Source of the DNA: Tubulanus polymorphus
Lineage: Eukaryota; Animalia; Nemertea
Assembly (NCBI RefSeq): GCF_964204645.1
Contig: NC_134027.1
Coordinates: forward strand, 22,778,560-22,842,559
Reading direction: 5' to 3'
DNA length: 64,000 bases
The position numbers and the translations under genes were made by a program. Positions 19,363-62,667 of the stretch are shown here, in pieces (the first letter of the stretch is position 1; each line of letters begins with the position of its first letter). Under the pieces are notes generated by a model, which saw only the letters and a list, made by a program, of their open reading frames with translations, was not told the origin of the DNA and ran no database searches.

Positions 19363-22300
19363 CTAAATAACAACAGATGTCGACACCTTTGCGTTCTGCG
19401 CCCGTTCCGCTTCTTTGGCTTTAAAGCGAGCGTCGAGTTGAGCCGTCACCGATTTCGGAGCAGCCGCGCCGAGTTCCATGTACGGCTCGTCGTCGAAATC
19501 ACCGATGAATTCGCTAGGGGGCGCTTGTTTTTCGTTTTTGGTCAGCGTATGTAAATAGATTGGTTCATCCTGAAAAAAAAGACCATAAGAACTGATCATC
19601 GTGATTGTCAGATACACTTTGCAGTGCTAAAGCCGGGTATCAGGAGAAATGCCATTGCGTCAGGCCAGTTCTATGATATAACTTACATAAAAAATTTAGA
19701 ATTTGAAATTCGTTGGAACTCAATAAACAGAACGAGACGAATAGCACTTATAGGTTAACTTGTTTATTTGACGCGCGAGCTTTCGCTACTAGTGTATAAC
19801 CCTTTTGTGACATCGAATCCAGGGTCGTCCAGTTTCGTGAATAGTTTAAACCGAAACGTTTGTGTTTTGGGTTGGATAACATAAAAAATTCGGATAGAAA
19901 CGGAGTTCTGTGGTCGATTCGTGTTGAAAAGGAAAATGAACTAAAAGCGCTACCTTGTCGTTAGACGAATCCTCTAAAGTCGGATTGTTGATTCCACAGT
20001 TGGAGTAGATGTCTCCGTTATCGTTGTGAACTTCTTCGTTCAGATCTTCATCGTCGCCAACCATGTGATAAGGGCTTTCATCTGAAAATAGCCGCGTTAT
20101 ACACCAGTACTGTATTCAAATAACTGTTGAAACCTTTATCCGGTGACCAGTCCGACAGTTTTAGGCGAAATTCCCCAAAAAGAGTCCAAAACCGTTTGAA
20201 AATACTGTTTACTCTGGTCGAAAAACTGCGGAGCTGCACCAGGGTTTTTCGTCGTCCAACCATAAACAAACGAGAACCTTGAACAATCTTTACGCAGATA
20301 TTCTCGATTTGTTTTATTTCAGATCTTACCCATGTTATAGTTCTTTTTCTGTGGTTTATTAGCCTTCTTGCCGTTGCGTTTTCTATTTGGATCCACTTGC
20401 GCGTATAACGGTGCAGCACTGGTCGCGGGTCCTGCAACGATAGAAGATACCGAGAATAATATCAACTTCAAGTTTGATAAATTGTATAATCTGAGCCCCA
20501 AATATAGTCTACTGAATTAGTTAGAATAACTTTGGCTCCTGTACGCTGAGTTTTCATATTCTTTACCTTTCGGCTTCTTCTTAGTTTCGTCGATATTTGA
20601 GTAAATAGGTCCATCAGCGCCATCAACCAAAGCTACAATATTTGCAAGATATTAGTAGGAATAAGGATCAGTTGTTAGTAGTGAATTGAATTCATTTTTC
20701 GAAAAACGATCCGTGTTCGGCTGATTGCGCAAGTGATGCTGGTGAGGTAAGGCTACGAAATTCCCGTTATTCTGTTGCAAAACCCAGTTTCCACACATTG
20801 CTCAAATTTTGACTCGATGAACCCCTTTAAACAAAAATTCCGATCTTCTATACTTCCACTCCCTGTTTTGGTCCCACCGTCATATGTCAAGGGATTGCGA
20901 TATCAATTGAAAACGAAGTCATCTTATCTCACGAGTTAAACGCAACCTAGAACTGCGGAGCTGGATCTTCAAAAACGTTTTAATATATGTAGATAGTAAA
21001 AAAGATACCGGAGTTAGAATTCCCGTTATTCTTCGCGGCTGCTGGACGTTTTTTGTTTTTATTGACTACCGCATAAACATCGTTTGAAATATGAAGAAAA
21101 ATGTAAGATCTTTCTAACGATTTAAACATTACATACAAAAAGAGTAACAAAATGTTCAGGTTGAAATGCACGTAGGAACGGTTTTATGGGGCAATTCTTT
21201 TTTTCGGCATGGGTTACACCATGGAGTCCATCGTTACACCCGAACAAGCAAAGTTGTGTTACATGGGCAAATAGCCGAATTATCAAATATTTGTTAGGCC
21301 TATTTACACAGAACTTGTCAAATAGTAGGAGGATTTGAAAGCTAAAGAACTGATGCTTTTTGCTTTTTTTTTTAAATTAACCGATATTCGGATTATCCTG
21401 TCTGGTCATAATGGCTCAATCACCATTACAATGATTAATGCCTGGAACCAGTTCTATCAGATTTCGGTTAGGTTTGACTCTACAGGTAAAACATTGACTC
21501 ATTTTAGTCTAGAGTCAAACTAAACCACGACATTTGTAGAACTGGTTCCCGGTGTATTCCACGTGACGGTGTCTCGGATGGTATTAATAATCCCCGGTAA
21601 TGAAAGGGCTACAAGGGAAAGAGAAATAATTGGGAAAGGAAAAGGATTATACCTTGTGGATTAGCATCATTGTCATCTCTTTTTTCTCTTTTGTCATCCT
21701 CACCAGAACTGTAAGAAATACACAATCCTAATTAGAATTCACCGGATTTAGTTTCAGATTATGAAATAAGTAATCATTTGCATTGCAGTCAGGTACGGAT
21801 CCGGGAGCTTATTTTGAAGAACTTATCATATCCGAAAAGGCCACTTTGATGTGTAAAAAGGCAATATTAGGTGTAGTGTATGGAACGATTTTCTTTGTTA
21901 ACAAAATGAAAAAGGGCACTCAAACAATCTGATGATAAATTTGATGATGTACAAGTCTCCAAAGTCACCGCGGATCCACCCCAGTTAGCTTGTGTGAAAT
22001 AATCATGACAGGAAATTCAATTCATACAGGGTGGTTTTCGAAGCTATAGTCGACTTAGTTGGAACTAATAACCGGATGTCGTAACGTAATACGTAGTGTC
22101 GGCCATCCTGGAAATAGGGACGAACTACAACTGCGTCTGTGCCCAATTCCGTGGTCGACCATTTCCGGTCCACAATTCCGACAAACTGACATTCGGTTTC
22201 ACTTAGTTCGACTGTAGTCGACTAACTCCGATAACCGTGCAGAGTTAATGGGGTCAGACCTTTTTGAATCGTTCCGGCGTTTTCTCACGCAAACCATCAC

Positions 22301-60400: not shown

Positions 60401-62667
60401 ACGTAGTCACATGACCATTCTCCAGCATCATCCATACTTATTTTCAGATTCGACTATACTCAATCAAAAATGTAACAAAGCACAGCGGGGACATATCTAC
60501 GGAAGCGTCCTTGGGACATAATTAAATTTTGATCTATATTTTGCTGATTAAGAAATCATAATATTAAATCAAAATTCGATTTTATATTAAATGTTATGAT
60601 TTTTTTCGCCCGGCGTTGATTTATTTCCGACTTTTTTCACGGAATCAAATTACCGCCGGTTCAATAAAAATGATTTAATTCCGTAAAAAAGTCGGAATTA
60701 AATCGCCGCCTGTCGAAAAAAATGTGAACTTTAATTAAAAATTCGATTTTTTATTAACTGTTATGTTTTTTTTCGAGCGGAGTTGATTTAATTCCGATTT
60801 TTTGCATGGAATTAAATAATTTGTTCAACGGTCAAAAGAAACATAGCATTTTAATAAAAAAATCGAATTTCTTTTTAATTTTATAATCTTTAAATCACCA
60901 AAAAATTAGAAAATTAGTTATGTCCGCAGGATGCTTCCGTACTCCCGTACGTATCAGACGGGTTTCCGTGTGCTTTTTTTCAGAAATACATCAAAGAAGA
61001 GTCGGCAGAAAAAAACTACTCATACGAAATTAATTTTCTTAGAGAATGTAAAACTCGCAAAAATACAAATATCGATCGTATGTATTGTCTCAAAGACGCT
61101 TTTTAATAAGACATTATTAGAAATATACGAACGGTACAGCTTAGAATTAACTTTTAACGAAAATTGCTCATCGTTTATGTAATGAAAGCGTTGCGTTCTC
61201 ATTTATTATAGTTCCAATTGAAACGCATCGTACACACGCGATTGGAACGCGATTTAAGGCTGATACAACGATGTACAGAACGCGTTTAATTCCGTTCCAA
61301 AACGCTTACCGTTTTTCCGTTTTTAAACGTAAACGGAACGGATAATAAACGTTAACGATATCAATTTCATTCAAAGCTGTCCCGTATGCATGTTTTATAT
61401 CATCGTTCTACATTTTGTCCGTCTCACCTACTACAGTAACTACTGTTTTAGTATTTGGGAAAGAGTTCATGTAGTCACATGACCATTCTCCAGCATCGGT
61501 CATCTGTACGTTAGTGATACGTATACCATAACGTCCAGCTGTGACGTCACATTCTACAGCGTTGTTTTCAGTGATAGTTCCACGAGGACAGTCGGTCTTA
61601 TCAAGCGCAAACTGCCGTGAGGGGCTACTCAGTGTTATTCCGTGCCCGCAGAAATCTTCACTGGTTGGTGAAACCTGACATTGTACGACAGTGGTGCCAC
61701 CTAGTGTTACAACTGCTGGTGTTACAGCCATCGTGATTGTCGTATCCGCTGCATCTATACAATTCTGCTGCTGTCCTAGAAATATACAAATACCGTTAAA
61801 TCCAATTGAGGTGAAATTAAGAGCTTCAATTTGTCTGTGATTTCTTCTTGATTTTCATACCAAATATCTTTCAAACTCCATTTCAAACAGCCGAATAGCA
61901 TTGTCAAATTTCAATTTTTTCGAATGTATGGGTTTTTAAGTATCGTTGTTCACCGCCTGTCACCATGTCAATTGGGGATATATCGAATTCTCGTAGTTTT
62001 TAAATAGGTGGTATTTTACCTGTTGTATATTCAAATGTGAGGATAACAATCGCAAACACGATCCACACTACATTCTGAATAGAACAAAATTAAAACCGTT
62101 TTACATCATCAGGTTTGCTTTATTTCTAAATTAATTCTCCAATCGACGTCTAAATTGTTCGTATCCATTCCATCAAGGAAAAGACCTGGGGCCGGTTTCT
62201 CAAATGTTGTTTAAGTCTTAAACAGTCGTTAAATTGCTAAACGGGTCGCTAAAAATTAACCAGTCGTTAGTCTTAACGACTGGTTAAAATTAAACAACCT
62301 TTGAGCAACCGGCCCCTGATTTTATCATGGACCCTAAAACGAGAACTTAATTTCAGAGTCCATGTTTTAATCAAGTCGTCTATAGGAATTCGTTTTTATT
62401 GACTTGTGAATCTGAATATTGATCATTTTGAATAGAAGAAGACAATTTGTGTATGGATCTATTATAGACGGGTACTTGAAATCCAAAATCCTTCTAAAAA
62501 GGGTTTCGTTTAACCCAAATACCTTATGGATAAGTTTGGTATTATTAACATTTCTTCGGTTATGAGAAGGCTGCTGTGGTTATACGTTGGCAACCCTTGT
62601 ATACCTACGACATTATGGATAAAAATATGCACTAGTATATACTCACTTGGACGCGTTGAAATTTCAT
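51469..62667 (-). CDS. Ig-superfamily type-I membrane receptor 'gene C' (signal peptide, V-like, 4 Ig, FN3, FN3-like, TM, tail with NPxY and ITIM)
   Basis: Exons: 62667-62647 (MKFQRVQ); 62074-62020 (NVVWIVFAIVILTFEYTTG); 61775-61428; 59990-59715; 56459-56184; 56064-55732; 55005-54733; 54317-54012 (FN3); 53455-53177; 53051-52898 (TM); 52748-52690; 52557-52430; 51687-51469. All are GT-AG and phase-compatible, with no stops. Confidence 0.88.
53521..53614. repeat. Imperfect (TCG/TCA)n microsatellite
   Basis: Directly visible. Confidence 0.85.
56811..59438. mobile_element. Older PIF/Harbinger-like MITE interrupted by the long-TIR element
   Basis: GGGGAACGTTCAAATAGTACGTA at 56811 and TACGTAATATTTGAATGCTCCC ending 59438 are imperfect inverted termini. 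Confidence 0.55.
56981..59178. mobile_element. 2.2-kb non-autonomous DNA element with ~590-bp terminal inverted repeats
   Basis: 56981-~57570 is the approximate reverse complement of ~58592-59178 (TTAAGCCTTTTTACAGTTTCCAGGCGCC...). There is no internal transposase ORF. Confidence 0.9.
60352..60450 (-). pseudogene. Relic of a duplicated V-domain exon (3' part)
   Basis: The - strand reads MDDAGEWSCDY[4-bp insertion]MSLFPNSETVITVV followed by ATGAG instead of GTGAG. Confidence 0.75.
60537..60907. mobile_element. AT-rich foldback/MITE with terminal and internal inverted repeats
   Basis: The termini are imperfect inverted repeats. Internal GATTTAATTCCG / CGGAATTAAATC units occur in both orientations. 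Confidence 0.6.
62189..62315. mobile_element. PIF/Harbinger-like MITE with CTG target duplication
   Basis: CTG|GGGCCGGTTTCTCAAA...TTTGAGCAACCGGCCC|CTG. Confidence 0.75.

Follow-up and report, generated by a model that had tools for sequence, protein, structure and literature searches.

Three receptor genes on the minus strand

We analyzed a window of 64,000 nucleotides from the nemertean Tubulanus polymorphus (contig NC_134027.1), in which an earlier note, made from the sequence alone, had described a tandem cluster of immunoglobulin (Ig)/fibronectin type III (FN3) receptors that might serve in immunity or allorecognition. Six-frame translation, together with tblastn searches of the window with exon peptides, bore out three same-strand paralogues, A, B and C, all on the minus strand within 19363-62667. 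These bounds are exact, with the ATG of C at 62667 and the end of the A stop codon at 19363. Reverse-transcriptase elements and one unrelated G protein-coupled receptor (GPCR) gene lie between the three genes, of which A is spliced, C is intact and B is broken. The domain counts first proposed (three Ig domains in A; five Ig and two FN3 domains in C; seven Ig exons and two FN3 domains in B) hold, and the transmembrane (TM) and terminal-exon motifs are present as described. Splice sites were placed by hand. Pfam scores were obtained for the V and Ig exons and for the first FN3 exon; the second, juxtamembrane FN3 of the window genes had no Pfam match, and its predicted fold is that of an FN3 domain (predicted local distance difference test, pLDDT, 91.7; VIA Z 9.7, root-mean-square deviation, rmsd, 2.5, 87 aligned, tenascin). 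All three genes carry a long tail, so that the two tail classes of the wider family, which are central to our interpretation of these genes as candidate paired receptors, are invisible from the window alone.

Gene A (19363-27614; RefSeq LOC141902292) codes for a 576-residue protein with a signal peptide, a V-set domain, a second Ig domain, an I-set domain, a stalk, a TM segment and a long tyrosine-bearing tail, and our exon model is letter-identical to the RefSeq model P0001 for this locus of T. polymorphus. A first coding exon of three codons (27606-27614) precedes the signal-peptide exon (26631-26694) and the V-set exon (25267-25611; Pfam V-set, E 6e-06), which has six cysteines and no C-strand tryptophan. 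In the structure check that had been proposed for it, this domain modelled as a V-set Ig with modest confidence (pLDDT 67.5, Z 9.5, rmsd 2.4, 96 aligned). The second Ig exon (24238-24513), 95% identical in DNA to its counterpart in C, is followed by the I-set exon (23457-23747; Pfam), by an exon for an 18-residue stalk (23303-23356), placed by spliced joints and the RefSeq model, and by the TM exon (22260-22392). The tail is encoded by a first exon at 21653-21708, an allele-dependent exon with a YAVV motif at 21009-21083, three exons at 20632-20567, 20431-20330 and 20081-19954, with YSNI, YAQV and SPYHMV motifs, and a terminal exon at 19363-19569 (EPIYLH...YMEL). The stalk exon, the first coding exon at 27614-27606 and the allele-dependent tail exon are corrections to the earlier gene model. 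This haplotype has AA as the acceptor of exon 21009-21083, where contigs from sequencing runs X1 and X3 have AG, and the exon is skipped by RefSeq isoform X2 and entered further downstream by RefSeq isoform X1. Judging from this sequence difference, the content of tail motifs in A probably differs between alleles. Several protein-changing differences in A were found between individuals.

Gene C (51469-62667) has a 908-residue open frame for a signal peptide, a V domain, four further Ig domains, two FN3 domains, a TM segment and a long tail; RefSeq covers only its last 457 residues (LOC141902832, P0030). Its V-set exon (61428-61775) codes for a domain identical at 109/116 residues to the V domain of the short-tailed model P0004. 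Two of its introns hold remnants of lost exons, one of a second V exon (60343-60429; 84% identical to the V exon of C over 87 nucleotides) and one of a deleted Ig exon (55455-55494) that is homologous to a stop-bearing exon of B. The FN3 exons lie at 54317-54012 and 53455-53177, the TM exon at 52898-53051, and the tail exons at 52748-52690, at 52557-52430, with YQIV-x6-YQDV and NPAY motifs, and at 51687-51469, where STYSEL matches the consensus of an ITIM (immunoreceptor tyrosine-based inhibitory motif).

A further correction to the earlier description is that B (31547-40446) is a pseudogene, which retains seven Ig exons, two FN3 exons, a TM exon and seven tail exons. Signal, V and second-Ig exons were absent anywhere between B and C. 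One Ig exon (38485-38722) is without its acceptor and the 5' third of its sequence, and another (38069-38350) has an in-frame stop and a donor that reads CT. In addition, the I-set has a Cys-to-Ser change, a tail exon of 55 nucleotides (34264-34318) contains an in-frame TAG and an extra base, and one further tail exon lacks a canonical donor. The missing exons together with these five lesions identify B as a pseudogene, and the lesions also speak against B serving as an alternative 3' half onto which the 5' exons of C would be spliced, which is thus unlikely.

Four sequencing runs were aligned to 19300-26300 to assess splicing of A. Among the joints listed, run X2 contained spliced joints at at least nine of the ten A introns within this interval; eight were exact CT..AC joints and one was shifted by an allele. 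Joined X2 contigs over A had depths of 113-346, as compared to about 6-33 for unspliced pieces. None of the joints seen in X2 occurred in X3, which is from the same sample, or in X1, and a processed DNA copy of A is therefore unlikely. Run X5 gave no contigs over A, an outcome that carries no weight either way. Thus, X2 behaves as RNA, a nature that we infer from the joints and that is absent from the run record. For C, exact joints were present in X2 at the last intron (51687/52430) and at the intron between the V and second-Ig exons (59990/61428), in contigs with 92% likeness and differences of a paralogue type, so that splicing around C is supported at the level of the family only. Summed X1 contig depth was 531-1755 over the V and second-Ig exons of A versus about 38-57 over tail bins, which fits many copies of these exons and is not itself a copy number. 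X1 contigs lying upstream of the two V exons, over 25618-26300 in A and 60660-62900 in C, had depths of about 23-25, against about 35-47 elsewhere, and one 252-nucleotide X1 contig with 32 differences covered the V exon of A at depth 16. Possibly, a second haplotype is divergent or missing near the two V exons.

Shared ectodomains and two tail classes

Word searches, a HMMER search of representatives and cluster look-ups, with models separated by accession and isoform labels, gave a T. polymorphus family of about 21 gene models, some of them fragments. Nineteen lie on a 27.8-Mb contig and two on a 16.5-Mb contig; P0031 and P0055, identical at 1210/1224, could be an assembly duplicate. Eight models have a long tail of 151-300 residues with 7-14 tyrosines, and an ITIM consensus match is present in all eight. 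Ten models have a short tail of 60-102 residues, none with an ITIM match and all with a YE[ED][VI] end. Three models lack a TM segment. Searches of the ESM Atlas returned only generic Ig superfamily (IgSF) clusters with A and only leads below 0.9 with the long tail, and a sequence search of the PDB returned generic Ig cell-adhesion molecules (IgCAMs), none standing out.

Two trees of V domains were built, the first leaving out P0028 and the partial models P0015 and P0035, the second including P0028 and leaving out the partial P0014, the long-branch P0036 and the tail-less P0013. There were only three starred cherries, C with P0004 (94%), P0032 with P0033 (93%) and P0008 with P0005 (86%), and each of them pairs one long tail with one short tail. 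Monophyly of the long-tailed members was rejected both for the V domain (approximately unbiased test, p-AU 0.0007) and for the I-set plus FN3 (p-AU 1.5e-60). P0032 and P0033, which lie on one contig, share 847/892 ectodomain residues and have unrelated TM and tail regions, and each tail is 67-73% identical to tails of the same class on the other contig. C and P0004 likewise lie on one contig. Conversely, duplicates of the same class are identical at 386-387 of their last 400 residues, with only 71-78% identity in V. Tails were swapped behind the TM segment at least twice; of the three types of TM segment, two are found with both tails, and A is a P0007-like three-Ig receptor that bears a long tail.

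Because the exons for Ig and FN3 domains are symmetric in phase 1, they can be gained or lost with the reading frame preserved. Full-length members have from three to nine Ig domains, built with few exon types. Synonymous divergence (dS) between A and C was lowest in the second Ig exon (0.046), higher in V (0.27) and the I-set (0.46), and highest in the terminal exon (1.08), and the two genes are thus mosaics; the tract of 95% identity between them is the second Ig exon alone. As read from these sequences, pseudogene B, the exon remnants in C, the range of three to nine Ig domains and the size of the family support birth-and-death remodelling of a family of tyrosine-motif IgSF receptors, as first proposed. 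Within the V alignment, entropy was 1.20 at residues 38-57 and 0.61 elsewhere, and variability was concentrated at these residues and in the F-G region. From the strand order of the model, the variable sites would lie on the C-C'-F-G face. The cysteines of the B and F strands are kept in 13/13 aligned V domains, and the C-strand tryptophan is absent.

Relatives in other species and a candidate paired-receptor system

Among 1.84 billion representatives, the V domain had no full-length, high-identity relative outside Tubulanus, and its other high-scoring matches were repeat proteins aligned over part of the domain. The membrane-proximal half, however, matched two clusters of the nemertean Lineus longissimus at 27-28% identity over 99% of the query. 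The Lineus proteins are colinear with P0033 (26%, E 4e-45) and were the top matches outside Tubulanus, among 95 proteins, of a hidden Markov model of the second FN3; in a tree, they group with the Tubulanus proteins at 87/87. Two of them, P0068 and P0070, are identical at all but 16 of 486 Ig residues, seven of the 16 being in V, and then continue into different FN3-TM-tail halves; the longer tail has repeated YAQV/YADV motifs. On sequence grounds, L. longissimus holds a homologous family with the same layout of shared Ig domains and different tails, and the strict lineage specificity suggested at first was not upheld. It also seems possible that the 16 Ig and TM genes of Lineus ruber labelled CRIg-like in PMC9835746 include family members. 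In the literature searched, with most subscription journals outside the search, we found no account of the family, nor of any nemertean Ig receptor that bears an ITIM. We conclude that the family is real, expressed and undescribed, while the kind of receptor is itself already known.

RefSeq names the members nephrin-, syg-2-, NCAM- or contactin-like, and although these are automatic similarity labels, they raise the alternative of a neural or developmental recognition code expanded from a nephrin/SYG-2/Sidestep-like ancestor. Nephrin, SYG-2 and Sns share with the family a string of V, C2-type (C2-set_2) and I-type Ig domains, a juxtamembrane FN3, a TM segment and a tyrosine-rich tail, and the best matches outside the family include arthropod nephrins, at 24-29% identity. 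The Tubulanus family nevertheless differs from them in having three to nine Ig domains, mostly two FN3 domains and about 21 models, and the Tubulanus and Lineus proteins form a group of their own, separate from the arthropod nephrins and moderately supported (87/87 and 88/87), in a tree that contains no spiralian nephrin, from which two short outside matches were dropped and in which some nephrin segments may be misregistered. Moreover, we found no one-to-one orthologue of a known IgCAM, which agrees with the earlier opinion that these are not conserved neural IgCAMs. With the copy number high and A spliced, none of the outcomes named at first as refuting the original proposal was observed. 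Neural wiring families evolve slowly; pseudogenes, a variable number of Ig domains and tail swapping are unlike them. Taken together, these observations make a neural code distinctly unlikely.

In vertebrates, innate immunity relies centrally on Ig receptors that come in inhibitory and activating pairs. The cross-class V cherries, the shared ectodomains, the restriction of ITIMs to the long tails of Tubulanus and the layout in Lineus suggest to us, with a probability of about 55%, that the nemertean V-set/Ig/FN3 receptors, with their similar ectodomains and two tails, serve paired inhibitory and activating recognition on defence cells. In such a system, the N-terminal V domain would bind ligand through its variable C-C'-F-G face, and the tyrosines of the tail would then be phosphorylated by Src-family kinases. 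The response would be dampened by SHP/SHIP phosphatases recruited to long tails, whereas short tails would signal directly through their YxN and YEEV/I motifs, with no DAP12-like adaptor. SH2 domains of the Src family prefer YEEI, and that of Grb2 prefers YVNV/YxN. Through unequal crossover and exon-scale conversion in the array, long and short tails would repeatedly come to carry one and the same V domain, and sharing of V across tails would be expected under exploitation of the inhibitory member by parasites or microbes. The family also offers a test of whether pairs arise in any setting where an inhibitory receptor is open to exploitation.

The comparison with known systems is consistent with such pairing. 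Paired IgSF receptors, as set out in section 28 of PMC13358205, are likewise encoded by linked genes with near-identical ectodomains and a long ITIM-bearing or a short tail, and they too show conversion, domain shuffling and pseudogenes; the Xenopus XFLs shuffle domains, and receptor pairing appears to exist in invertebrates, according to PMC2413239. In amphioxus, an ITIM-type inhibitory receptor that recruits SHIP/SHP has been reported (PMC8211107). Unlike these paired receptors, the short class described here has no charged TM residue and carries its own tyrosine motifs; the nemertean family also has FN3 domains, and there was no sign of orthology. By analogy with vertebrate KIRs or Siglecs, the family likely works like a paired-receptor system, although we assign it to no vertebrate family, and an immune role is plausible. 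Among spiralians, the Biomphalaria clusters GRC and PTC2 similarly consist of divergent single-pass TM genes and are linked to parasite resistance, but no Ig/FN3 layout or paired tails are described for them in the accessible part of PMC7494358, and fibronectin is not mentioned in its main text. The oyster CgIgIT2 (PMC11999971) and Mytilus P0078 are multi-Ig single-pass receptors with tyrosine motifs; they are described as single genes and not as a two-tail cluster. P0078, from Mytilus coruscus, has Ig and FN3 domains and two ITIM-consensus motifs in its tail, and it falls outside the nemertean group in the tree.

Several observations weigh against paired recognition. The ratio of non-synonymous to synonymous rates (dN/dS), a check proposed from the outset and computed among A, B and C only, was 0.26-1.08 across exons with wide intervals and in no case shown to exceed 1 (A-C V, 0.60; confidence interval 0.34-1.18), and at V residues 38-57 the proportion of non-synonymous differences (pN) is below that of synonymous ones (pS). 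Label shuffling gives P=0.15 for 3/3 closest V pairs being cross-class, and the tails of a tandem array can be mixed by recombination without selection. A single inherited motif accounts for seven of the eight ITIMs; A lacks it and has a different match instead, and an ITIM match is present in both Lineus tail types. No strict ITAM (immunoreceptor tyrosine-based activation motif; ITIM and ITAM consensus as given in 10.1101/2022.03.04.482883) was found in 15 tails scanned, of which five had a V-tolerant doublet, and no charged residue was found in 18 TM segments, including the ten of short-tailed members. The long tails also bear YxN motifs and a YxxV-x6-YxxV/I doublet, and may not be purely inhibitory. 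Finally, family members that lie outside the window are represented by models that RefSeq generated automatically, unchecked against DNA.

Some of these points would fit IgCAMs for adhesion or signalling, arrayed in tandem and shaped by neutral unequal crossover, in which mixed tails are a by-product and convey no opposing signals. The pairing is not significant by count, no dN/dS value is shown above 1, retroelements break up the array and one of the three window genes is dead. Yet both tail classes are kept on two contigs with conserved tyrosine motifs, V diverges first in same-class duplicates, and a layout with two tails is seen again in Lineus, at 26% identity. We consider a neutral origin of the tails unlikely and favour paired recognition.

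The clustered Alr genes of Hydractinia, which were among the parallels drawn at first, resemble the family in their V, I and FN3-like domains, single TM pass, tyrosine-bearing tails, exon shuffling and pseudogenes (10.1101/2022.03.04.482883). This layout, the rejection of xenografts with memory in Lineus (PMC2248247) and the protein differences in A between individuals would agree with an Alr-like histocompatibility system, in which a polymorphic V domain binds self homophilically and controls graft acceptance. However, whereas Alr V domains mostly lack the disulfide and the tryptophan, and several Alr proteins carry strict ITAMs, the nemertean family keeps the B- and F-strand cysteines of V, has no strict ITAM and has two defined tail classes. 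The likeness in layout stands and the allorecognition analogy is weakened. No Hydractinia protein was found among the named matches of several searches; many of the 27 matches of one search are unnamed, and no direct comparison with Alr was run. T. polymorphus is, moreover, a solitary animal, and allelic hypervariability of V is only hypothetical. We regard self recognition of the Alr kind as the least probable of the three alternatives. A cluster in which V domains are shared by two tail types, present in two distant ribbon worms, supplies named candidates for a long-standing problem, what underlies graft rejection in Lineus at the molecular level (PMC2248247). That an ancient, independently built nemertean paired complex, a protostome counterpart of the KIR/Siglec loci with adaptor-free Src/Grb2 activation and a layout conserved between Tubulanus and Lineus, stands behind graft rejection with memory is a speculative and rather unlikely extension.

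Other features of the window

The window has a GC content of 38% and a CpG observed/expected ratio of 1.15, and thus shows no CpG depletion. The GPCR gene between B and C is an intact single exon of the rhodopsin family (45602-46663, plus strand; 353 residues; 7tm_1, E 5.9e-12) flanked by retroelements. A direct repeat of 110 bp (44786-44895 and 49404-49511; 90%) surrounds it and one retroelement. Decayed elements of the type without long terminal repeats (non-LTR), with RVT_1 matches, lie at 17302-18400, 40694-44559 and 47222-49284, and one such block sits where the 5' exons of B are missing. An intron of C holds an element of about 2.2 kb (56977-59182) with inverted arms of about 590 bp (89%) and very high summed X1 depth, which is probably a DNA transposon. 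A leucine-rich-repeat exon on the plus strand (2963-3160; Pfam LRR_4, E 1e-4) presumably resembles the C-terminus of CMIP. Minisatellites occupy 3245-3829, 4265-5119 and 29225-30448, with units of 51, 70 and 76 bp, and the last of these arrays contains a near-exact duplication of 429 bp.

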